From a virus (lineage: Duplodnaviria > Caudoviricetes): a stretch of DNA of 64,000 nucleotides. The notes under the pieces are model-generated. The model saw only the letters and a program-made list of their open reading frames with translations, was not told the DNA's origin and ran no database searches. Where the stretch lies: the IMG/VR virus record IMGVR_UViG_3300011113_000415; one strand, 5' to 3'. This document shows positions 26,182 to 62,263 of this stretch, piece by piece. Each line of letters starts with the position of its first letter. Position 1 is the stretch's first letter. The translations under genes were made by a program, and so were the position numbers.

Positions 26182-27651
26182 ATGAAAAGATGTACAATAC
26201 AAATTAGAGATGAAGTCAATATCAAGTTAGAAGGCCTTGATTTGGATGTGCGCCGGGCTTTGGTTACCGCTTTTAAATATGATGTGCCTTATGCTAGATA
26301 TCTTCCAGCAGTGAGACTTGGACGTTGGGACGGCAAAGTAAGTTATTTCCAGTTAGGCGGATCAACTTATACCAATCTCTTGCCTGAAATCGTTCCTATT
26401 TTGGAACGATTTGATTATGATATTGAAATAGATGATCAAAGAGATTACTCAACCTCATTCTCTTTTGCTCAAGTTAATGAAGATTCGTTTGCACACATTG
26501 CCTGGCACAAAGGTCATCCTGAAGCAGGCAAACCCATTCGCATGCGAGACTACCAAGTGGAGATTGTGAACAACTTCTTAGCCAACCCACAGTGTCTACA
26601 AGAAGTGGCCACCGGCGCGGGCAAGACCATAATGACAGCCGCACTGTCAAATGCAGTGACGCCATATGGTAGATCAATTGTGATTGTGCCCAACAAGAGT
26701 CTAGTTACACAGACTGAAAAAGACTACATCAACATGCAACAGGATGTGGGTGTGTATTTTGGCGACCGCAAAGAGTGGGGACGGCAGCACACCATATGCA
26801 CCTGGCAGAGTTTGAATGTGTTATTAAAAAACACCAAGGCCGGCGTGGGCGACTGTACCATTGGTGAGTTCTTGGAAGGTGTGGTTTGTGTTATTGTGGA
26901 CGAAGTACACATGGCCAAAGCAGATGCGCTCAAAACTCTCCTAACAGGGGTGATGTCAAGAGTGCCAATTCGCTGGGGTTTGACTGGAACCATACCCAAA
27001 GAGAAATTTGAAAGCCAGGCTCTACTGGTTGGACTAGGACCTGTGATTGGAAGGCTCAGTGCAAACGAACTGCAACAGCAGGGAGTACTTGCAAACTGTC
27101 ACGTCAACATTGTGCAGTTGGTGGATCACGTGGAGTATAAAGAGTACCAAACAGAACTTAAATACCTACTTGAAGAGTCAGGCCGCTTGGATACCATGGC
27201 CCAACTCATAAAGCGAGTAAATGAAACAGGCAACACACTGGTGCTTGTGGATAGGGTAGCCGCAGGACATGCCTTAGTAGAACGCTTGGGTGATCGTGCT
27301 GTGTTTGTGTCTGGGGCAACCAAAGCAAAGGATCGCCAAGATGAATACGACGAAGTTGCAGAATCCTCAGACAAAATTATCGTGGCCACGTATGGTGTGG
27401 CGGCGGTTGGAATTAACATTCCGCGAATCTTTAATCTTGTGCTCATTGAGCCTGGCAAGAGTTTTGTTAGGGTTATCCAGTCGATTGGCCGAGGTATCCG
27501 AAAAGCAGAGGATAAAGATCATGTGCAAATTTGGGACGTCACCTCAACCTGCAAGTTCGCCAAGCGACACCTGACCAAACGAAAACAGTTCTATAAAGAA
27601 GCCAACTATCCCTTTAGTTCAGAGAAACTGGAGTGGATGAAAATCGCTTGA
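26182..27651 (+). CDS. uvsW: SF2 DNA helicase UvsW
   Basis: ATGAGKT, VDEVH, GLTGT and QSIGRGIR motifs; TTGTAA-17 nt-TACAAT promoter. Confidence 0.92.
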   Translation: MKRCTIQIRDEVNIKLEGLDLDVRRALVTAFKYDVPYARYLPAVRLGRWDGKVSYFQLGGSTYTNLLPEIVPILERFDYDIEIDDQRDYSTSFSFAQVNEDSFAHIAWHKGHPEAGKPIRMRDYQVEIVNNFLANPQCLQEVATGAGKTIMTAALSNAVTPYGRSIVIVPNKSLVTQTEKDYINMQQDVGVYFGDRKEWGRQHTICTWQSLNVLLKNTKAGVGDCTIGEFLEGVVCVIVDEVHMAKADALKTLLTGVMSRVPIRWGLTGTIPKEKFESQALLVGLGPVIGRLSANELQQQGVLANCHVNIVQLVDHVEYKEYQTELKYLLEESGRLDTMAQLIKRVNETGNTLVLVDRVAAGHALVERLGDRAVFVSGATKAKDRQDEYDEVAESSDKIIVATYGVAAVGINIPRIFNLVLIEPGKSFVRVIQSIGRGIRKAEDKDHVQIWDVTSTCKFAKRHLTKRKQFYKEANYPFSSEKLEWMKIA

Positions 27652-27682: not shown

Positions 27683-28183
27683 ATGCGCATACTAACACTT
27701 GACAACGCTCCTTACGATCTTGATCACCTACCTGAACAGGTAGAAGACATGAGATTTGCAATCTTGGACAATTCAGATCCTGCCAATCCAGACTATCATT
27801 ACATACCACTTATCTTTTTGGAAAGTTTCAATGCACCTGCTCTGGTACTGCAAATAGGAACCAACAGAATCCGAATGCCTGTGGACTGGCAGATCCTTAT
27901 TGGCGAACCTGATGTGGGCGATTTAGAAATACTACCACTCACAAGTATTAATGATCGTGGATTTAGAGCATTTCAATTCAATCCACTTAGCAGTTTCCGT
28001 CCATCCTTCCCCAACATAGAAATTGTGGATGTGTATCAGGAAGTGGCTTGGTATGCACCCAAACTCAAGAATGGTCAAATGCTGTGTGTGCCCATAGACG
28101 ACAGTGCAACTCCGGACTGTGTTTATTTTGTGAAAGACATCAGTCGCAACTGTGAAATAGTTGATTACAACAGGGCATGGTAA
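27683..28183 (+). CDS. Conserved hypothetical phage protein (beta-rich)
   Basis: 166-aa ORF following uvsW in a compact operon. Confidence 0.6.
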   Translation: MRILTLDNAPYDLDHLPEQVEDMRFAILDNSDPANPDYHYIPLIFLESFNAPALVLQIGTNRIRMPVDWQILIGEPDVGDLEILPLTSINDRGFRAFQFNPLSSFRPSFPNIEIVDVYQEVAWYAPKLKNGQMLCVPIDDSATPDCVYFVKDISRNCEIVDYNRAW

Positions 28184-28470
28184 TGGGAACACTTACTCCA
28201 GGCGCTACATACATTTACGAACGTGCCAATGGTGTAGTATATGCCAGAGAGTTTAATGCACATCCTAGTACCAGAAAAGTAGTGGGTTATGATGATCCCA
28301 AAGCCTATGATCCTATAACAGGACACAAAATCGACACAATCATGGGCATGGACATGCGCCGTGTGGCCAACCTGGTTGGCATGGCCCAAGCGGCAGAAAC
28401 CAATCCCGCTTTACAAGATGCACTAGAACGTGCTATAATGATCTATCAATTGAGCAAACCAAATGAGTGA
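28177..28470 (+). CDS. Hypothetical protein
   Basis: 97-aa ORF overlapping its neighbours in the operon. Confidence 0.55.
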   Translation: MVMGTLTPGATYIYERANGVVYAREFNAHPSTRKVVGYDDPKAYDPITGHKIDTIMGMDMRRVANLVGMAQAAETNPALQDALERAIMIYQLSKPNE

Positions 28471-28909
28471 TAAACTAAACATTGCCAACGAGATGCGTAT
28501 GTTTGACCGCAAGGTTAGGTCATTCTACGACGACCTCACTGCTGAAGAAAAGAAAAAGTTTTCAAACTATCTCATGATACGTTGGGGATCAGCAGTGGAA
28601 GGATCAAGAGAACTGCAAGAGTTTTATGTTATTGCCACCAATGAGCGATTGAACAAACATTTTTTTGACGTGGCCAAACATCCTCAACTGCAATGGCTCA
28701 TGGCCACAAGTGTGAGCCCAGGACTGGGTACGCCTAGACATCCTTGGATTGCGCCCCGAAAGAAAGAAGCAGGACTAAGTGCCAAACGCCGTGCCATGAT
28801 GGAAGTATATCCCAATTATAAAGATGATGAAATAGATGTCATGTGTGCTATAACCACACAACGAGAAATAGACGAGTACAACAAGCAAGCAGGCAATGAC
28901 AAGAAATGA
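28463..28909 (+). CDS. gp62: Clamp loader small subunit-like (T4 gp62 family)
   Basis: FSNYLMIRW, HPQLQW and helical C-terminus resemble gp62-type proteins; replication context. Confidence 0.6.
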   Translation: MSDKLNIANEMRMFDRKVRSFYDDLTAEEKKKFSNYLMIRWGSAVEGSRELQEFYVIATNERLNKHFFDVAKHPQLQWLMATSVSPGLGTPRHPWIAPRKKEAGLSAKRRAMMEVYPNYKDDEIDVMCAITTQREIDEYNKQAGNDKK

Positions 28910-29580
28910 CATTCCGGTGTGAGTATTGCAAGAAAGAATTTTCAAGAGAAACATCAATAGCAGTTCATGCATGTGAACCCAAACGTAGACGTTTAGCCCG
29001 AGATGAAGCAGGTGTGCGCATGGGATTTCAAGCCTATATTCGGTTCTATGAAACCATGCAGGGTAGTGCAAAGAACAAAACACACGATGACTTTTGTGAC
29101 TCGCCGTACTATCGAGCGTTTGTAAAGTTTGGTAACTATTGTGTAAACACTAGAGTCATAGCACCCGATCGTTTCATGGCATGGCTGCTCAAAAACCAAA
29201 AGAAAATTGATCACTGGTGCAGTGATTCTGTCTACACAGAGTATCTTGTGGAATACTTGCGGCAGGAAGCAGTAGCAGATGCCCTGGCTCGAGCAATAGA
29301 ACACAGCATGAGATGGGCAGAAGAAACAGGCAATCCGGCCCATGACTGGTTGCGTTATGGCAACACCAATGCACTATGCTATGCTGTCACAGCCGGACGT
29401 ATCTCACCCTGGGTTATCTACAATTCAGAATCAGGGCAAAAGTTCTTGACTGAACTCTCAACAGAACAAGTGGCCATGGTTTGGCCTTACATTGACTCAG
29501 ACGCTTGGCAAAAGAAGTTCTCAAACTATCCAGCGGATCAAGAGTATGTAAAAGACATATTGAGCAAAGCAGGATGGTAA
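28906..29580 (+). CDS. Zinc-finger-containing conserved phage protein
   Basis: N-terminal CEYC..F......H.C motif. Confidence 0.6.
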   Translation: MTFRCEYCKKEFSRETSIAVHACEPKRRRLARDEAGVRMGFQAYIRFYETMQGSAKNKTHDDFCDSPYYRAFVKFGNYCVNTRVIAPDRFMAWLLKNQKKIDHWCSDSVYTEYLVEYLRQEAVADALARAIEHSMRWAEETGNPAHDWLRYGNTNALCYAVTAGRISPWVIYNSESGQKFLTELSTEQVAMVWPYIDSDAWQKKFSNYPADQEYVKDILSKAGW

Positions 29581-29581
29581 C

Positions 29582-29938
29582 ATGATCAAAGCAATTCATA
29601 CTCTAGGCAAGTACATGCAGGTAGTTGGCGGTAGCACCAGCACCTATGTCAACGCCGGTTATGGGACACAAGGGGTTGGCAACTTGCGTTTCAATACCAG
29701 TGGTCAGCGACTGGAAGTTTATGATGGTACATGCTGGCAAGAACTGAACACGCCACATGCCAGCATAGGACTCAATGCCGAAGCCGAACAAGCCATTGAC
29801 TGGGTGCGTCAACAGATGGAACGAGAGCATAGGCTCGAAGTGTTGGCCCAGAAGCATCCTGGTGTGGCAGACGCACTAGCGGCAGTTCAGCAAGCCCAAG
29901 AACAACTACGTATTGTCACAGCATTGGTGCAAGAATGA
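29582..29938 (+). CDS. Hypothetical protein
   Basis: 118-aa ORF with a coiled-coil C-terminus, in the operon. Confidence 0.55.
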   Translation: MIKAIHTLGKYMQVVGGSTSTYVNAGYGTQGVGNLRFNTSGQRLEVYDGTCWQELNTPHASIGLNAEAEQAIDWVRQQMEREHRLEVLAQKHPGVADALAAVQQAQEQLRIVTALVQE

Positions 29939-30492
29939 GCGCAGACATTGATTTAGATTTTGCCAATCGCGAAGATGTACTGAAACTGATCAAGTACACC
30001 CCGGCACGACAAAGCAACGGGCGACGACACAACTCAGGAATCTATGTCACAAACATACCACGAGATCCTGTTAACAATTGTGCCGCGTTGGATTACGAAA
30101 CAGCCGAAGCAAGAGGATACTTTAAATTGGATTTTTTAAACATGAGAGTGTATCAGTTGATTCGTGATCCTGCACACTATGATGAAATGTTGACTGCCAT
30201 ACCACCTTGGCAACGATTATGGACTGATCCGGGATGGGCTAAACAACTGGTACACGTGGGCAATTATACAGATTTGTTGAAGAGCATGCGACCAGATAGC
30301 ATACCCAGGATGGCTGCCTTTATCTCCGTTATTCGTCCAGGCAAGGCGCACTTGCAAACACGCCCGTGGGCAGAAGTATTTGCATCAGTGTGGGACGGAG
30401 ATGATAGCCAAGGATATACATTCAAGAAAAGTCACAGTATTTCCTATGCGGCGCTGGTAGCACTACATATGAATCTTTTGAATCAGAATTAA
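29935..30492 (+). CDS. Minimal DNA polymerase III alpha (DnaE, C-family)-like catalytic domain
   Basis: Colinear motifs DIDLDF, RHNSGIYV, EARGYFKLDFL, ISVIRPG and GYTFKKSHSISYA. Confidence 0.75.
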   Translation: MSADIDLDFANREDVLKLIKYTPARQSNGRRHNSGIYVTNIPRDPVNNCAALDYETAEARGYFKLDFLNMRVYQLIRDPAHYDEMLTAIPPWQRLWTDPGWAKQLVHVGNYTDLLKSMRPDSIPRMAAFISVIRPGKAHLQTRPWAEVFASVWDGDDSQGYTFKKSHSISYAALVALHMNLLNQN

Positions 30493-30866
30493 TCTACTCT
30501 TCTTACGAGTGTAATACTCTTTCTTTTGCTCTTCTTGCGAGCAATGTCATTTAAACTGCACACTGGGCCGTGCAGGATTTCTAAATCTTTGTTGGCAAAT
30601 GTTCTTAGTGTAGGACGGAACTGTTCCCACTCACCACGTAGGAATATGTTTATGGGTATGCTACGATTGCTCTCCCACCACCAAGTGTTGGCCAAATCTA
30701 TAAACCTACGCTTTGAATCTTGATCTTGTACTGCTCCAAAGTCGTAGATGGTGGTAATTGCGTCATCTCGATTTTGCACTATGCCCACATATTCGTTGCT
30801 GGCGTAGATGCACAAGGTTATAAATGGATATTTCTCTGCTAATTTTTGAAACAAATCACTGCCCAT
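30489..30866 (-). CDS. Conserved hypothetical phage late protein
   Basis: WWWESNRSIPINIFL motif; full TATAAATA on the minus strand at 30883-30890. Confidence 0.7.
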   Translation of the reverse strand: MGSDLFQKLAEKYPFITLCIYASNEYVGIVQNRDDAITTIYDFGAVQDQDSKRRFIDLANTWWWESNRSIPINIFLRGEWEQFRPTLRTFANKDLEILHGPVCSLNDIARKKSKRKSITLVRRVD

Positions 30867-30920: not shown

Positions 30921-32012
30921 ATGTACTCAACCACCGCCTACATTTATCAGCAGATTCAAAGAATTTTATTAATAGACACTTCGGGCGAGGGTGAGGTATT
31001 TGTCCGGAGGTGGGAACCAGTGTACGCAAAAAAACTAACAATCAACAAGGGCGTGGACAACGTGATCTTGTTTGAATTCATAAATCAAGATCAAAAGCCT
31101 GTGAACATCACCGGTAGCACACTTATGTTTAGATTGATCAATCTACAAGGCGATGCTCAGTTGCTGGAAAAAGAAATGGTAATATTGAGTGCGCTATATG
31201 GCCGTGCCAAGGTCACACTATCTGCAGCCGAAACAACAGAACTGCCTACAGAACCTGCCAGTTACTCCATAGACCGTACCAGTGGCAATCTCACAGAAGC
31301 AGTGTTTGTGGATGCACAAGCACAGGCTCGTGCTGATGTTGATATTCAAGATAGTGTACTACCAGAGTTTGTGCCCAGCCACACTGTGACAGTGCCTACC
31401 ATCTACGGTCCAGAAATTTATGTTAACCCTGTGTATGCTGGCAACTATCCTGATTGGGCACTAAATCCGCCTCCTGTGGGCAACGTGCAACCCAATCCTG
31501 AACGCTACTCAAGTTTTATTCCCACAAACGGTTCAAGTTTAACTACATTTCAATTGACCTTTGATCACTACACTGGCAACATCAAGGCTCAGGCCGCTGA
31601 GAATTATGAAAGCACTTGGTATGATGTTACTGACATCTACAGTTTCTACAACAAAACTGGCGTGGACTATATCAATGTGTTGGGTTACCATCCCCTATTG
31701 CGATTGGACCTGAACAGTTATTCAGGGGCAGAAATTGTGGGGCCTGCCACTGCCAATGCTCAAGCAGCCAATGGCGTGATCACAGGCATTACAGTGACCA
31801 ATTCAGGCAATGGCTACCTAGCACCGCCCAAGGTTTCAATTGTGGGGCTGGGTGCTGGCGCGGTAGCAGAAGCAGAAATTACTGGCGGCCAGGTGAGTGC
31901 CATAAATGTAATAAACGGAGGTCAAGGCTACACCCCCTCGCCGGCGCAGCCAACAGTGCCCGCCGCAGTATTCATCACAACCGGGGCTGTAACAGACATA
32001 ATTTGTAGATGA
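30921..32012 (+). CDS. Virion structural protein (baseplate/tail-associated)
   Basis: BppU-like N-terminal region (NQDQKPVNITG); C-terminal ITGITVTNSGNGY..PP.V.I.G repeats typical of phage tail/baseplate proteins. Confidence 0.6.
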   Translation: MYSTTAYIYQQIQRILLIDTSGEGEVFVRRWEPVYAKKLTINKGVDNVILFEFINQDQKPVNITGSTLMFRLINLQGDAQLLEKEMVILSALYGRAKVTLSAAETTELPTEPASYSIDRTSGNLTEAVFVDAQAQARADVDIQDSVLPEFVPSHTVTVPTIYGPEIYVNPVYAGNYPDWALNPPPVGNVQPNPERYSSFIPTNGSSLTTFQLTFDHYTGNIKAQAAENYESTWYDVTDIYSFYNKTGVDYINVLGYHPLLRLDLNSYSGAEIVGPATANAQAANGVITGITVTNSGNGYLAPPKVSIVGLGAGAVAEAEITGGQVSAINVINGGQGYTPSPAQPTVPAAVFITTGAVTDIICR

Positions 32013-32742: not shown

Positions 32743-33732
32743 ATGCTTGATATACTGCAATACTTGCCTGCGAAACGACGACCCAGTCCACAAGGCTGGT
32801 TGAGTTTCAATGCGGTATGTTGTAGCCACAATGGACAAAGTGCGGATCGGCGAGGTCGCGGTGGTATCAAGGTCACAGAACAGGGTTGGGGCTATCACTG
32901 CTTCAACTGCTCATACACAGCCAATTTTGTTTTAGGACGCACACTAGGATTCAAGGCCCGGCGATTGTTGTCGTGGATAGGCGTGCCAGACACAGAAATT
33001 GACTTGCTCAATCTCGAAAGCCTGCGGTATCGTAGCATTCACGGCATACTAGAGGATCGACAACGAGTATTCAACACACTCAGTGATATCAAGTTTGAAG
33101 AACTAGACGATTTTCCGCCATTCTCAGAAGTGATCACTCCCGAGTTTCCACGATACTGGGATTACATTCGTCAGCGAGGTGTGCCAGAAGATTTTCCTGT
33201 GATGACTGCTATCAAAAATGATGGGGTTCATTGGACCAGACCTTTTGTGCTAGTGCCGTTTACCTATGACAATCAAGTAGTGGGTTGGACTGCTAGATTC
33301 TTGGATGACAAAACGCCCAAATACATCAATCACTCGCAACCAGGTTATGTGTTTGGCACAGACCTCCAACATGCTGACTGGCAACATGTGCTTGTGATGG
33401 AAGGTATATTTGATGCACTGAGTATAGGTGGACTTGCTGTGATGCACAATACTATCAGTGATGCACAAGCAAGATTAATTCGCAGTCTGGGACGCGAAGT
33501 CACAGTGGTGCCAGATCAAGATTCTGCTGGTTTAGAACTGATTGACCGTGCTGTGGAACTGGGCTGGGCTGTGAGCATGCCCGAGTGGCCCGAGGGTTGC
33601 AAAGACGTCAATGACGCTGTGATAAAACTGGGCAGATTGGGAACCTTGCTAACTATAATGCAAGCACGTGAAACATCAAAAATAAAAATTGAAATAAGGA
33701 AAAAGCAACTTGTTAAAAGACTACGGACTTGA
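32743..33732 (+). CDS. gp61: DNA primase (T4 gp61-like)
   Basis: Zn-binding CCSH..YHCFNC; TOPRIM VMEGIFD, PDQD, KDVND. Confidence 0.88.
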   Translation: MLDILQYLPAKRRPSPQGWLSFNAVCCSHNGQSADRRGRGGIKVTEQGWGYHCFNCSYTANFVLGRTLGFKARRLLSWIGVPDTEIDLLNLESLRYRSIHGILEDRQRVFNTLSDIKFEELDDFPPFSEVITPEFPRYWDYIRQRGVPEDFPVMTAIKNDGVHWTRPFVLVPFTYDNQVVGWTARFLDDKTPKYINHSQPGYVFGTDLQHADWQHVLVMEGIFDALSIGGLAVMHNTISDAQARLIRSLGREVTVVPDQDSAGLELIDRAVELGWAVSMPEWPEGCKDVNDAVIKLGRLGTLLTIMQARETSKIKIEIRKKQLVKRLRT

Positions 33733-35155
33733 TGTCCAGCGATTATTTCTAGAAATGATGTTGGAAGACGCACAAAGTTATGTGCGTGTTCAAAACATCT
33801 ATAACCCGCAAAACTTTGACCGGAGTTTGCGACCAGCGGCTGAGTTCATCAAAGAACACACAGACAAACACAAAACCATGCCTGACCGCACACAGATTGC
33901 GGCCACCACAGGCATCAAGTTGCAACTAGTGCCAGATTTGAATGAGGGACACTTTGACTGGTTCATGGGCGAGTTTGAAGCGTTTACTCGGCGTCAAGAA
34001 CTTGAGCGTGCAATTTTAAAATCAGCAGACTTGCTGGAGAAAGGTGAATTTGAACCTGTTGAAAAACTTATCAAGGATGCAGTCCAAATATCACTCACTA
34101 AAGACATGGGTACGGATTACTTTGCTGATCCTAAGGCTCGCATTGAGAAATACTTCAACTCGGGCGGACAAGTAAGCACAGGATGGCCGCAATTGGATCG
34201 ACTGCTGTACGGCGGATTCAGTCGCGGAGAACTAAACATTTTTGCAGGTGGATCAGGATCAGGCAAATCACTTGTGATGATGAACATAGCATTAAACTGG
34301 TTGCAACAAGGACTAAGTGGGGTATACATTACACTTGAACTGTCAGAAGAACTTACCAGTCTACGTACTGATGCTATGCTGACAAACATGAGCACAAAAG
34401 ATATCCGTCGAGACATGGATACCACAGAACTCAAGGTCAAACTTGTGGCCAAGAAGTCGGGCAGTTATCAGGTCAAAGGTTTGCCAGCACAGAGCAACAT
34501 CAATGACATTCGTGCTTACTTGAAAGAATATCAAATTCAAACTGGCAAACGAGTAGACTTTGTGATGATTGACTACTTGGACTTGCTGATGCCAGTGAGT
34601 GCCAAAGTTAGCCCTAACGATTTGTTTGTCAAAGACAAGTATGTGAGTGAAGAATTGCGTAACTTGGCCAAAGAATTAGGAGTGTTGATGGTAACTGCGT
34701 CGCAGTTGAATAGATCGGCTGTGGAAGAAGTTGAATTTGACCATTCGCATATTTCGGGCGGTATTTCAAAGATCAACACCGCAGACAATGTGTTTGGTAT
34801 CTTTACAAGCCGAGCAATGAAAGAACGTGGCAAGTATCAGATACAATGTATGAAGAGTCGAAGTAGTACCGGCGTTGGACAAAAGATTGATTTGGAATAC
34901 AACATTGAAACCATGCGTATCACAGACGAGGGCGGCGACGAACGAGACAACTTCCGCGGTGGCGCCAAGCCCAGTATCATGGATTCAATCAAGGCCCGGA
35001 GCCAGGTCAAGCCCTCGGAAGAAGGTGAGTCTAGTACGCCACCTTGGGAACGGGCTCAGCCACGCGAAGGTTTTGACCTAGAAGAACCCAAAGTCACAGC
35101 AGATGTTCAAAGTGCCAAACTCAAACAGTTGCTCGGGCAAATTAAAAATGCATAG
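33710..35155 (+). CDS. gp41: Replicative DNA helicase (DnaB/gp41-like)
   Basis: AGGSGSGKS, ITLELSE, IDYLDL, TASQLNR, KSR. Confidence 0.92.
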   Translation: MLKDYGLDVQRLFLEMMLEDAQSYVRVQNIYNPQNFDRSLRPAAEFIKEHTDKHKTMPDRTQIAATTGIKLQLVPDLNEGHFDWFMGEFEAFTRRQELERAILKSADLLEKGEFEPVEKLIKDAVQISLTKDMGTDYFADPKARIEKYFNSGGQVSTGWPQLDRLLYGGFSRGELNIFAGGSGSGKSLVMMNIALNWLQQGLSGVYITLELSEELTSLRTDAMLTNMSTKDIRRDMDTTELKVKLVAKKSGSYQVKGLPAQSNINDIRAYLKEYQIQTGKRVDFVMIDYLDLLMPVSAKVSPNDLFVKDKYVSEELRNLAKELGVLMVTASQLNRSAVEEVEFDHSHISGGISKINTADNVFGIFTSRAMKERGKYQIQCMKSRSSTGVGQKIDLEYNIETMRITDEGGDERDNFRGGAKPSIMDSIKARSQVKPSEEGESSTPPWERAQPREGFDLEEPKVTADVQSAKLKQLLGQIKNA

Positions 35156-47669: not shown

Positions 47670-48094
47670 TGTGGCCTGCTACCTTTGAACAACGCCTGCA
47701 TGCGTGGGGTGTTCTTCGTGAAAGTGTTCAACACGCACCTCTTGAACAAGTCCTTGCTGAAGTCAACACCTGGTGGTTTCAAACTCCTTGGCGAGTGTAT
47801 CATTTGCACTGGGATGATCGGACAAAATGGCCTGATCCCTGGGAACTTTTGAGCGACAATATCTATTGCGATCTTGCTCGCGGGCTAGGAATCCTGTATA
47901 CTATAACTTTGCTGGATCGTGCGGATCTGCAAGATTCGGCACTGGTGGAATCAGATCAGGGCAATTTAGTCCTGGTCGAACAAGGGAAATATATATTGAA
48001 TTGGGACTCGCAACAAGTGTTAAATATCAATCCAGGGCAGATCAAAGCCCAGCACAGCGTGACGCAACAACAAATAAAACAACAACTCGGGTAA
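47666..48094 (+). CDS. Conserved hypothetical protein, weakly transglutaminase-like
   Basis: WPDPWELL..N.YCD motif. Confidence 0.5.
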   Translation: MMWPATFEQRLHAWGVLRESVQHAPLEQVLAEVNTWWFQTPWRVYHLHWDDRTKWPDPWELLSDNIYCDLARGLGILYTITLLDRADLQDSALVESDQGNLVLVEQGKYILNWDSQQVLNINPGQIKAQHSVTQQQIKQQLG

Positions 48095-48096
48095 CA

Positions 48097-50415
48097 ATGA
48101 AGCAGATAACAGTACAAAAACGTGACGGAACTCGCGAGCCATTGGCATTGGAAAAATGGCAAGCACAAATAGCCAAGGTGTGTGCAGGCACCGCAGATGT
48201 AAGTCAAAGCATGATTGAAATCAAGGCACAACTGCATTTTTATGATGGCATTACAACAAAAGAAATTGATGGCATTACTTTACGTGCTATTGTAGATTTG
48301 ATTGACGTAGAGTCAAATCCTGATGTGGGCCATACCAACTATCAGTATGTGGCAGGTAAACAACGACTATCAATGTTGCGTAAAGATGTGTACGGTTCAT
48401 ATGATCCACCTCACTTGTATGACATTGTAAAGCGAAATGTGGACACTGGCCTGTACACTCCTGAATTGTTGGAGTGGTATTCTGAAGAAGACTGGAATCG
48501 CATGAATGACATGATTGATCATGCCAAAGACGAACAGTATTCCTATGCCGCAGTGGAACAGTTGATTGAAAAGTATCTTGTGCGTAATCGCTCCACCAAG
48601 GAAATTTATGAAACACCACAAGTCAGATACATGGTTGCCGCAGCCACAGTATTCCACAGCGAAGAACCCAACACAGCCAGAATGCGCTACATCCGAGAGT
48701 ACTATAATGCCGCAAGTGATGGCCTGTTTACTCTTGCTACTCCTGTGCTTGCCGGTCTTGGTACTCCTACAAAGCAGTTTTCAAGTTGTGTGCTTATTCG
48801 CAGTGATGATGATTTGGATAGTATTTTCGCATCAGGTGAGATGATGGCCAAGTATGCCTCAAAGCGAGCAGGCATTGGCTTGGAGATTGGTCGACTACGT
48901 CCCTTAGGCTCGCCCATACGTGGTGGAGAAATCATGCACACCGGCATGATACCATTTTTAAAAAAATGGTTCGGTGATTTACGCTCATGTTCACAAGGTG
49001 GTATTCGTAATGCAAGTGCAACTGTTTTTTATCCCATATGGCATCATCAGTTCGATGACCTTATTGTTCTCAAGAACAATCAAGGTACAGAAGAAACCCG
49101 TGTGCGGCACATGGACTATGGGGTTGTTCTTTCCGCATTTTTCTGGAGACGATTCAAGAACCGAGAAAACATAACATTCTTTGACCCTAACGAAGTACCC
49201 GATCTCTACGAAGCATTCTACGCCAACACTGAACGCTTTGAAAAACTTTATACGGAATACGAGAAGCGTCGAGACCTACGTACCAAAGTAATGAGTGCTG
49301 AAGAAGTGTTCAAGTCAGGCATACTCAAAGAGCGCACTGACACTGGACGCATCTATCTTGTGTTCATTGACAACGTTCAGAATCAAGGACCCTTTGACAC
49401 TGAATATCATACCATTTACCAGAGTAACCTTTGCTGTGAAATTCTGTTACCTACCAAACCGTTTAAAAGACTGGACGATGAAACAGGTCGCATTGCACTA
49501 TGCACCTTGGGATCCATCAACTGGGGTGCGTTCCGTAATCCTGAAGACATGCGTCGTGCTTGCAGGATTCTGCAACGCAGTCTCTGTAACATTCTCGATT
49601 ACCAAGACTTCCTCTCGATCCAGAGCCAACTCTCGAATGACGAAATTCAGCCGCTTGGCATCGGCATTACTAACCTTGCTTACTGGCATGCCAAGCGCGG
49701 ACTGCAATATGGTGATAAAGACGCTCTTGCCGAGGTTAAGTCTTGGATGGAGCACCAGGCCTATTACCTTACCGAAGCAACAGTTGAATTGGCAAAGGAA
49801 CGAGGCCGTTGCAAAGATTCTGACCGGACCTGGTACGGTAAAGGTGTCTTTCCTTGGGAGAGACGTAGCGCCGGGGTCAATGAACTCACGGACTTTACAC
49901 CTGAACTGAACTGGGAAGCCCTACGTGCAGAAATGCGATCCTACGGAGTCAGAAATGCTACACTTATGGCCATTGCTCCTGTTGAAAGTAGTAGTGTGGT
50001 TATTAATAGTACCAATGGTATTGAAATGCCCATGAGTCTTATTTCAGTCAAAGAATCAAAAGCAGGTAGCCTTACACAAGTTGTGCCCGAGTATCACAAA
50101 CTCAAGAACAAGTATCAACTGATGTGGGCACAACGAGACTGTGACGGTTATTTGAAAACTGCGGCTGTGTTGGCAGCCTATGTTGATCAATCAATCTCAA
50201 CAAACACATTCTACAATCCAGCACACTTTGCTGAACGTAAAGTTCCAACAACACTAATTGCCAAGAACTTGATGCAAGCACACTATTGGGGATTGAAAAC
50301 ATTCTACTACAGCCTGATCAACAAGCAAGGTAGCAAACAAAAAGATGAAGAAGCGGCGCCACTTGAAATCATTGATTTTGACGATGCGGAAGACTGCGAA
50401 GCATGTAAGTTATAG
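48097..50415 (+). CDS. nrdA: Ribonucleotide reductase class Ia alpha subunit
   Basis: ATP-cone (VQKRDG), SSCVL, NLCCEI, IAPVESSS, FYYS and C-terminal CEAC. Confidence 0.95.
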   Translation: MKQITVQKRDGTREPLALEKWQAQIAKVCAGTADVSQSMIEIKAQLHFYDGITTKEIDGITLRAIVDLIDVESNPDVGHTNYQYVAGKQRLSMLRKDVYGSYDPPHLYDIVKRNVDTGLYTPELLEWYSEEDWNRMNDMIDHAKDEQYSYAAVEQLIEKYLVRNRSTKEIYETPQVRYMVAAATVFHSEEPNTARMRYIREYYNAASDGLFTLATPVLAGLGTPTKQFSSCVLIRSDDDLDSIFASGEMMAKYASKRAGIGLEIGRLRPLGSPIRGGEIMHTGMIPFLKKWFGDLRSCSQGGIRNASATVFYPIWHHQFDDLIVLKNNQGTEETRVRHMDYGVVLSAFFWRRFKNRENITFFDPNEVPDLYEAFYANTERFEKLYTEYEKRRDLRTKVMSAEEVFKSGILKERTDTGRIYLVFIDNVQNQGPFDTEYHTIYQSNLCCEILLPTKPFKRLDDETGRIALCTLGSINWGAFRNPEDMRRACRILQRSLCNILDYQDFLSIQSQLSNDEIQPLGIGITNLAYWHAKRGLQYGDKDALAEVKSWMEHQAYYLTEATVELAKERGRCKDSDRTWYGKGVFPWERRSAGVNELTDFTPELNWEALRAEMRSYGVRNATLMAIAPVESSSVVINSTNGIEMPMSLISVKESKAGSLTQVVPEYHKLKNKYQLMWAQRDCDGYLKTAAVLAAYVDQSISTNTFYNPAHFAERKVPTTLIAKNLMQAHYWGLKTFYYSLINKQGSKQKDEEAAPLEIIDFDDAEDCEACKL

Positions 50416-60892: not shown

Positions 60893-62263
60893 ATGATAGA
60901 CTATACACAAGAAAGGTTCGTGAGAACTGTGAGTTCAGGTTGGATTCGCGATCTTGAATCAAGCGACAGCCGGATTCACAAAGAAAAAACTATCGAAAAG
61001 GCCTTGATGGCCTCTAGGCTGGGTAGTGCCGACGCACAGGCTTTTTTGTTCAACTGCTATCAAGCCTACAATCCTTTCTACACATTCCATGTGAAACAAG
61101 TTCCTGAAGTGTCGGCACAAACAAATCGATCCAATGACTGGCCCAAGTTCTGGGGCTTGTTGGAAAGTTTGCGCACCCGTAGTGTGACAGGTGATGCGGC
61201 TCGACTGGCCATTGAAGAATGCTCCAAGTTGTTTGATACTGATGAATGGAACATGGTATGCCGTCGAGTGATCATTAAAGATCTGCGTTGCGGCATTTCA
61301 GAAAAGACCTTGAACAAAATACTGAGCAATACAGATTGGAAGATTCCGGTGTTTACTTGCCAACTGGCTCAAGACTCCACAGACCAACCTCGCAAACTGC
61401 TAGGTGTCAAACGACTAGAACCCAAATTGGATGGTGTGCGTGTGCTGGCAATGGTACAAGGCATGAACGTGAGTTTGTTCAGTCGCAACGGCAAAGAATT
61501 TGCAAATTTTCCGGAGATTGCTCGAGACATCATGAGACACAGAGATGTGTTTCAACGAAATCTTGGATCCGGTGGCCGCTTTGTGCTGGATGGCGAAGTC
61601 ACCGGAGAAAGTTTCCAGAAACTCATGCGGCAGGCACATCGTAAAAGCGATGCCAAAACCGAGGACATGGTGTACAACATTTTTGACATCATACCCTTGG
61701 ATGACTTTCAACGTGGTTACTGGAATGCACAACAGTACAAACGATTTGAAATTTTGGAACAAGCCTGGGGTCGACTGCAAGACAATCCTTGCAGTTTGAA
61801 AGTGGTCTCAGGCCTGGAAGTGAATTTGGACACAGCAGAAGGTCATGACATCATGCAACGCTATGCTGAAGATTGTGTGGCTGAAGGTTTTGAAGGCATC
61901 ATGATCAAAACTGTGGATGCGCCTTATATCTGCAAACGTTCAGACTATTGGATGAAATGGAAACCGGTTATATCGGTTGATTTGGAAATTGTGGGTTTTG
62001 AACAAGGTACTGGTCGCAATGCCGACCGGTTGGGTGCTATAATTTGTGAAGGAGAAGACAATGACCGTAGAATTCGTGTTAATGTTGGTAGTGGGTTTAG
62101 TGATACTGTTCGTGATGAGTATTGGGCCAATAGGGATCAGTTACTTGGTCACTTGGTTGAAGTCCAAGCGGACGCAGTTACCCAAAACCAAGACGGAACC
62201 TACAGTCTCCGATTCCCAAGGTTCTTGAGATTCCGTGACTTTGAAGCAGGGGAGAAAGTGTGA
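60893..62263 (+). CDS. ATP-dependent DNA ligase
   Basis: EPKLDGVR (motif I), LDGEV, FDII, EGIMIK, KWKP, SLRFPRF. Confidence 0.92.
   Translation: MIDYTQERFVRTVSSGWIRDLESSDSRIHKEKTIEKALMASRLGSADAQAFLFNCYQAYNPFYTFHVKQVPEVSAQTNRSNDWPKFWGLLESLRTRSVTGDAARLAIEECSKLFDTDEWNMVCRRVIIKDLRCGISEKTLNKILSNTDWKIPVFTCQLAQDSTDQPRKLLGVKRLEPKLDGVRVLAMVQGMNVSLFSRNGKEFANFPEIARDIMRHRDVFQRNLGSGGRFVLDGEVTGESFQKLMRQAHRKSDAKTEDMVYNIFDIIPLDDFQRGYWNAQQYKRFEILEQAWGRLQDNPCSLKVVSGLEVNLDTAEGHDIMQRYAEDCVAEGFEGIMIKTVDAPYICKRSDYWMKWKPVISVDLEIVGFEQGTGRNADRLGAIICEGEDNDRRIRVNVGSGFSDTVRDEYWANRDQLLGHLVEVQADAVTQNQDGTYSLRFPRFLRFRDFEAGEKV

Follow-up and report, generated by a model that had tools for sequence, protein, structure and literature searches.

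A 64,000-nucleotide stretch of viral DNA (the window; IMG/VR record IMGVR_UViG_3300011113_000415, Duplodnaviria; Caudoviricetes) carries a plus-strand open reading frame (ORF) of 185 amino acids at 29935-30492 that is very probably the C-terminal unit (C-unit) of a minimal C-family (DnaE-like) DNA polymerase encoded by two genes. The original prediction, made from the window's letters, had left two readings side by side: a radically minimised stand-alone enzyme or one subunit of a split polymerase. Our results favor the second and speak against the first, as the ORF lacks the strand and helix of the GRGS element and relatives encode these in a separate gene of ~172 amino acids (the N-unit). 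Assignment of the ORF, as C-terminal unit, to the split minimal Pol III alpha family of Iyer et al. 2021 (Viruses 13:63; PMC7824862, section 3.4.1) is well supported; the family is a phage-specific polymerase with two distant genes in group 2.2 jumbo phages.

Motifs, homology and fold of the C-unit

Five DnaE motif blocks had been proposed for the ORF in a fixed order, and we located all of them in that order in the translation of 29935-30492: ADIDLDF (residues 3-9), RHNSGIYV (31-38), EARGYFKLDFL (58-68), RPDS and AFISVIRPG (119-122 and 128-136), and GYTFKKSHSISYA (160-172). The unit falls on residues ~398-778 of Escherichia coli DnaE, minus the thumb and one finger segment. The positions of the unit and its motifs are as follows, with conservation taken from an alignment of 80 diverse homologues at 25-66% identity (A1).

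29935..30492, plus strand: probable C-terminal unit of a split minimal DnaE-like (C-family) polymerase, 185 amino acids, ATG start (ORF list and translation)
29944..29958, plus strand: DxDxD strand (D4, D6, D8), in which D4 and D6 match the catalytic D401 and D403 of E. coli DnaE
30028..30039, plus strand: H32-N-S-G35 (HxxG) palm motif; H32 and G35 kept in at least 90% of the 80 homologues
30124..30132, plus strand: K64-L-D66, equivalent to K553-F-D555 (HMMER, query 52-76 on DnaE 541-565); D66 is the third catalytic Asp
30334..30342, plus strand: R134-P135-G136, the RPG finger motif, equivalent to E. coli R639-P640-G641 (HMMER, 111-137 on 616-642)
30427..30435, plus strand: K165-S166-H167, equivalent to K758-S759-H760 (HMMER, 147-174 on 739-767)

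The equivalence of D4 with D401 and of D6 with D403 was obtained from a natural fusion protein, described below, that HMMER aligned unbroken across the junction of its two halves to E. coli DnaE 319-417. With D66 matched to D555, all three catalytic Asp equivalents are retained, as had been suggested. In E. coli DnaE, the catalytic residues are D401, D403 and D555, and H760 is presumed to act as the steric gate that keeps out ribonucleotides (PMC8485763). By alignment, H167 is presumptively the steric-gate His that would exclude ribonucleoside triphosphates. The H32-N-S-G35 segment had been likened to the KHAGG block of DnaE, a correspondence by motif resemblance only. The DxD pair and the third Asp are present in the ORF, which starts three residues ahead of the first catalytic Asp; the G[GS] nucleotide-binding element is not.

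Sequence profiles and structure comparison converged on the same family. Residues 3-184 matched positions 7-193 (of 197) of phrog_11778, annotated as DNA polymerase, with E=3.9e-47, and a weaker match (2e-6) was found to phrog_405, a DnaE family of 1190 positions. A Pfam scan of the ORF returned no family even at E<=10, including none for DNA_pol3_alpha (PF07733), which covers the N-unit region of DnaE and not the C-unit ORF. Searched against the PDB, the single sequence gave weak yet collinear matches at E. coli DnaE 541-565, 616-642 and 739-767, and the profile of the 80 homologues retrieved Pol III alpha chains only (E. coli, Thermus aquaticus and M. tuberculosis; best E=3e-6). The AlphaFold2 model built from A1 has a mean predicted local distance difference test score (pLDDT) of 95.6, and Pol III alpha accounts for all 14 of its top Foldseek matches in the PDB. 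In VIA-align superpositions that covered 181-182 of the 185 residues, the model matched Taq DnaE 460-835 with Z 9.4 and E. coli DnaE 399-778 with Z 8.6; the best unrelated chain reached Z 3.6. The predicted fold is therefore that of the DnaE palm plus fingers, the superposition that the original prediction had put forward as a check. Because the profile, AlphaFold2/Foldseek and VIA-align matches all fell on Pol III alpha, we attribute the DnaE likeness to homology and not to chance.

The losses relative to DnaE were also as first described, with the PHP and OB domains and much of the fingers missing: the 185 residues cover E. coli 399-778 with gaps of ~92 and ~87 amino acids. The N-terminal PHP domain is absent, the ORF opening at the D401 equivalent. 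Nothing in the ORF matches DnaE beyond residue 778, and the clamp-binding/HhH and OB domains are absent.

Conservation and selection

Residues D4, D6, K64, D66, R134 and P135 are invariant in A1, and D8, H32, G35, K164 and H167 are kept in at least 90% of its sequences. Loss of the catalytic Asp residues among homologues, or neutral evolution, had been named as grounds for abandoning the polymerase assignment; the Asp residues proved invariant and the gene is under strong purifying selection. In codon alignments of the window gene with 35 usable IMG/VR homologues, the median nonsynonymous divergence (dN) was 0.137 and the median synonymous divergence (dS) 1.53, giving a median dN/dS of 0.09 (range 0.05-0.13); with dS close to saturation this value is approximate, yet it lies far below 1. 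The gene is therefore not a decaying fragment.

These data bear directly on a reading of the ORF as a decaying remnant of a captured dnaE, or as a decoy without catalysis that would sequester replisome partners of the host. In its favor, much of DnaE is absent and Pfam does not detect the protein, yet we consider this explanation very improbable. The catalytic residues stay invariant over 80 sequences down to 25% identity, and the homologues are intact, uniform in length and number in the thousands (5,765 metagenomic clusters for the C-unit); with the low dN/dS, these observations led us to reject a decayed fragment. What has been lost also speaks against a decoy, as the absent parts are precisely the host-interaction modules, namely the clamp-binding and tau-binding regions.

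The N-unit, encoded elsewhere in related genomes

A search of Sinorhizobium phage Phosso with Pfam DNA_pol3_alpha (PF07733) returned a single ORF of 177 amino acids (46.5 bits), annotated as DnaE-like, that contains GVGRGSS. It terminates in ...DFDEFLN, the equivalent of the DnaE FERFL block, and lies 224 kb from the Phosso C-unit. Corresponding N-units were found in uncultured relatives of the window. In an IMG/VR contig of 142.9 kb (G002), whose C-unit is 83% identical to that of the window, an N-unit of 172-178 amino acids lies 96 kb downstream of the C-unit. A relative of 345,154 bp that is 99% complete by CheckV (G004; C-unit 73% identical) encodes a single N-unit, on the strand of the C-unit and 95.5 kb downstream of it, and two further relatives (G005 and G006) encode one each.

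The N-unit profile matched E. coli DnaE 318-392 (E=4e-5). Folded alone, the AlphaFold2 model of the N-unit (pLDDT 74.6) places its residues 65-165 on E. coli DnaE 271-386, and C-family polymerases were 15 of the 15 fold matches listed. GVGRGSS is invariant in the N-unit alignment (A3), and N-units end in ...EFL(R/N). From the DnaE extents of the two units, the gene break maps to the short loop that links the FERFL block to PDFDVDF. The N-unit family, with at least 7,995 clusters against 5,765 for the C-unit, is similarly abundant, and the tblastn lists for the two units name the same phages, a co-occurrence that speaks for assembly of the halves in trans.

The first ~64 residues of the N-unit form a head for which neither sequence nor fold searches found a counterpart in DnaE. 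In its model (residues 1-64, L089:1207-1398, model ma4c98bfefd05) the head is a small alpha/beta structure of moderate confidence, with residues 53-71 as a low-confidence linker. A GroES-like ORF lies ~240 bp downstream of the N-unit gene in G002 (L089:1968-2369), and in Phosso an annotated co-chaperonin GroES (98241-98591) is two genes downstream of the N-unit.

A third DnaE-like gene was looked for and none appeared, either in G004 with phrog_12219 or phrog_11165, or in Phosso, Paride and three uncultured relatives (G001-G003) with the C-unit profile.

Predicted assembly of the two halves

The two halves are complementary, since the C-unit lacks the G[GS] element needed by transferases of the Pol-beta fold and this element is all that the N-unit holds of such an active site. 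We predicted the complex of the same-genome pair from G002. Its interaction prediction score from aligned errors (ipSAE) was 0.90 (median of three runs), compared with 0.07 for the best of three controls; 58 of 80 solved complexes reach that mark, as do 2 of 110 mismatched pairs. At least 84% of the contacts are common to the runs, and the partner pLDDT is no lower than 88. In the contacts of highest confidence, N-unit residues 133-146 (a strand and the GVGRGSS loop) touch C-unit residues 2-10 (the DxDxD strand), and the predicted interface is a rebuilt palm sheet.

Natural fusions of N-unit to C-unit support joint function of the two. They are 375-376 amino acids long, form three clusters from independent ENA and Logan samples, and join the halves through a linker of ~11 residues. 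The fusions are metagenomic (P0287, P0395 and P0396; locus L096:1066-2193); their nearest relatives, of 206-222 amino acids, match the C half only and are 51-59% identical there.

Joining of the chains by intein trans-splicing was rejected. The C-unit begins three residues before the catalytic strand, the N-unit ends at ...EFL(R/N) and the fusion linker is ~11 residues, which leaves no room for an intein, so assembly must be non-covalent.

These results also address whether the 185-residue protein could work by itself, as a radically minimised polymerase with no need of a partner. It does keep the three catalytic Asp equivalents and folds confidently alone. We nonetheless find this scarcely credible and rejected it: the GRGS element is lacking from a protein that starts three residues before the D401 equivalent; a matching N-unit was found in every related genome searched, bar two fragments that are 27-37% complete; rare natural proteins carry the N-unit fused to the C-unit; and the predicted interface restores the palm sheet.

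Proposed mechanism and activity

For a two-gene polymerase, we propose the following. The C-unit would supply the strand with metal-binding D4 and D6, the strand with K64 and D66, and a shortened finger subdomain that holds the RPG motif and the putative steric-gate H167. Alone it cannot complete a Pol-beta-like active site, because the GRGS triphosphate-binding element is missing. That element would be brought by the ~172-residue N-unit (E. coli DnaE ~271-392 plus the phage-specific head of ~64 residues), which we expect to be encoded ~95 kb downstream, outside the window. The units would associate non-covalently, and the palm sheet would be restored where the GRGS strand pairs with the DxDxD strand. 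The product would be a polymerase core of ~360 residues with a complete palm and trimmed fingers and without PHP, thumb, clamp-binding or OB domains. We infer that this heterodimer forms in vivo and is catalytically active, and that it would perform short, non-processive synthesis selective for deoxynucleoside triphosphates (dNTPs) near the replisome, for instance to extend primers, fill gaps or repair DNA beside a family B replicase.

Several points weigh against this proposal. E. coli DnaE has 138 residues between D403 and 541 where the C-unit has 46, so that ~92 are missing. This is enough for the thumb, which we take to be residues 433-510 from its published domain limits. Between 642 and 739, E. 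coli DnaE has 97 residues and the C-unit 10, which removes ~87 finger residues (643-738). The 643-738 segment presumably carries the conserved basic finger motif that contacts the incoming dNTP. The complex score may in part reflect memory of the intramolecular DnaE palm, and is best read as a sign of likeness and not as proof of binding. The presence of an N-unit in this genome is deduced from relatives; none lies within the 64-kb window, where tblastn with the Phosso N-unit gave chance matches only (E>1). Our literature search for experiments on the split mini-DnaE gave only Iyer et al. 2021, and no biochemistry or genetics of any member.

The finger segment is the main reason for caution: because 643-738 has no counterpart, full polymerase activity is not assured. 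That the ~360-residue heterodimer is a fully active, template-directed and dNTP-selective polymerase, extending primers or filling gaps in physical coupling with the adjacent primase and helicase, is thus a tentative proposition and somewhat doubtful as it stands. If it is true, the heterodimer would be much smaller than any other C-family polymerase core and would do without thumb, PHP, clamp-binding and OB domains.

A different outcome would be that the heterodimer forms and acts as a non-templated nucleotidyltransferase of the Pol-beta fold, adding nucleotides to 3' ends, primers or proteins, or making a small nucleotide product. The deletion of the thumb and of the ~87 finger residues, together with the absence of clamp-binding, HhH and OB domains, speaks for such an enzyme, as do the complete family B replicase of close relatives and the lack of activity data in the literature searched. 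We judge it unlikely all the same. The retained RPG motif and FKKSH block are DnaE-specific and the steric-gate His is kept in at least 90% of homologues; sequence and fold match C-family polymerases only; and in the distant phages examined the gene sits in the replication block, beside the primase and a DnaB-type helicase.

The original prediction had suggested looking through the rest of the genome for PHP or OB fragments and for a family B polymerase (PolB), and we carried out the PHP and PolB searches in relatives. A PolB of 886 amino acids is encoded in G004, and PolB is also present in G006 and Phosso. No PHP domain (PF02811) was found anywhere in G004 or Phosso. No PolB was found in four fragments (G001-G003 and G005), a result that is uninformative given their completeness of 27-61%. 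G004 holds no clear DnaQ-type exonuclease, and Phosso one sub-threshold match. With PolB in relatives, the mini-DnaE is an additional polymerase-like enzyme and not the sole one. Because close relatives carry a T4-like family B replicase, the most likely role for the mini-DnaE beside the primase and helicase is an accessory one, for example short primer extension, gap filling or repair.

The replication block

The ORF lies in a conserved block of replication genes, and further replication and nucleotide-metabolism genes follow downstream in the window:

26182..27651, plus strand: UvsW-type superfamily 2 helicase that opens the block (Pfam ResIII, DEAD, Helicase_C and weak UvsW_N; phrog_16)
27683..29580, plus strand: block of small genes of unassigned function, comprising phrog_11279, a 97-amino-acid ORF, phrog_11758 and phrog_11058 (C2H2 zinc finger)
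29582..29938, plus strand: upstream 118-amino-acid ORF, weak matches to PHROGs of unassigned function
30489..30866, minus strand: convergent 125-amino-acid ORF, phrog_11637, its 3' end overlapping the polymerase unit by 4 bp
32743..33732, plus strand: DnaG/Toprim-type primase (phrog_47, Pfam Toprim_2)
33710..35155, plus strand: DnaB/gp41-type replicative helicase (phrog_19, E=2e-71)
47866-50415, plus strand: class I ribonucleotide reductase large subunit (phrog_84, E=4e-266)
60893-62263, plus strand: ATP-dependent DNA ligase (phrog_114, E=2e-90)

Of the neighbours first proposed, PHROG and Pfam matches identified the primase and the DnaB-type helicase, and also the UvsW-type helicase. The label "gp62-like" gained no support, as the small upstream genes matched only PHROGs of unassigned function and no Pfam family. 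Stop and start codons overlap (ATGA) between the 118-residue ORF, which ends in TGA, and the polymerase unit, an arrangement that suggests translational coupling of the two. The downstream ribonucleotide reductase and ligase fit the replication and nucleotide module of T4-like group 2 jumbo phages.

The small genes at 27683-29580 are candidate accessory factors. If the heterodimer is active as proposed, the phrog_11279, phrog_11758 and phrog_11058 zinc-finger proteins might supply the missing DNA-gripping functions as extra subunits. The phrog_11058 protein (224 amino acids) has a C2H2-type zinc finger at its start and falls in virus-only clusters in the ESM Atlas.

The same gene order recurs in Phosso, Paride and 121Q: a helicase (UvsW-type in 121Q), small genes, the C-unit, a small minus-strand ORF, a virion-type protein, the primase and the DnaB/gp41-type helicase. 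Agrobacterium phage Atu_ph07 shares this layout, but the first gene, at the helicase position, is annotated as hypothetical. Small unnamed genes likewise lie between the helicase position and the C-unit in all four phages, a likeness of position only. A minus-strand ORF of similar size occupies the place of the 125-residue ORF in the same four, the likeness being one of size, position and orientation. Between the polymerase unit and the primase, the window encodes a protein of 363 amino acids (30921-32012, plus strand) with C-terminal similarity to repeat proteins of virions, baseplates and tail fibres; its positional counterpart in 121Q, Atu_ph07 and Phosso carries the annotation "virion structural protein".

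Comparison with known systems

The novelty implied by the original prediction was overstated, since the family has been published and its members are annotated in phage records. Iyer et al. 2021 (PMC7824862) described the split minimal Pol III alpha by computation and put it forward as a model for the ancestral Pol III module. The typical carriers of the mini-DnaE family are Rak2-, PA5oct- and Atu_ph07-like ("group 2.2") jumbo phages. By tblastn we found orthologues of the C-unit in 96 sequenced jumbo-phage records at 35-38% identity and >97% coverage, the carriers including Phosso, the PA5oct group, Atu_ph07 and the Rak2/121Q/GAP32/CBB group; several are annotated in GenBank/RefSeq as "DNA polymerase", "DNA polymerase III alpha" or "DnaE-like". 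At the nucleotide level, megablast with a 6-kb piece of the window found nothing among 50,697 phage records, and a search of IMG/VR for an exact 39-mer likewise came back empty. The C-unit belongs to a large uncultured clade of metagenomic relatives that are 69-90% identical to it, and the longest contig with exactly the same protein measures 334,901 bp. The gene is an ordinary, intact, divergent member of the family from an uncultured jumbo phage of ~335 kb, and not a new kind of polymerase. To the published description our analysis adds the residue-level break point, the extents of the deletions, the purifying selection, a controlled complex prediction and the natural fusions. With thousands of sequence clusters for each half, the mini-DnaE is very common in uncultured jumbo phages.

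The closest counterparts in isolates are the C-units of Phosso (XYS97594), Pseudomonas phage Paride (Paride_0017), Escherichia phage 121Q (gp16) and Atu_ph07 (gp074). These proteins of 183-212 amino acids share the DxDxD start and the same invariant residues, lie in the same slot, with the helicase-led small genes on one side and the primase/DnaB pair on the other, and have their partner N-unit encoded far off. Unlike them, the window C-unit is at most 35-38% identical to any isolate, and the halves are ~96 kb apart in its uncultured clade, whereas Rak2- and PA5oct-like phages have them 31-44 kb apart and Phosso 224 kb.

Cyanobacterial DnaE is likewise a C-family polymerase made from two distant genes, dnaE-n and dnaE-c, whose products are joined by a split intein. 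The phage enzyme differs in that it has no intein and in that its break lies inside the palm, not after the polymerase core.

As a functional analogy only, Bacillus subtilis offers a second DnaE-type enzyme beside a main replicase, as its DnaE stands beside PolC; on the phage side, the main replicase would be the PolB of relatives, and the mini-DnaE gene lies near those for primase and helicase. B. subtilis DnaE is proposed to extend primase products briefly before hand-off (PMC5627055, PMC5737612). Unlike the phage mini-DnaE, it is a full-length, clamp-using protein.

Bacterial DnaE itself (1160 amino acids in E. coli; PDB 2HNH and 5FKU; Taq, 2HPI and 3E0D) shares with the C-unit D401, D403, K553, D555, the RPG motif and the KSH steric-gate block. 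It differs in having PHP, thumb, distal finger, clamp-binding/HhH, OB and C-terminal tau-binding domains, all absent from the phage protein, and in carrying on one polypeptide a palm that the phage family divides between two; the C-unit, moreover, falls under every Pfam threshold. Set beside it, the mini-DnaE family bears on how little of DnaE a C-family core may need, possibly as few as ~360 residues on two chains.

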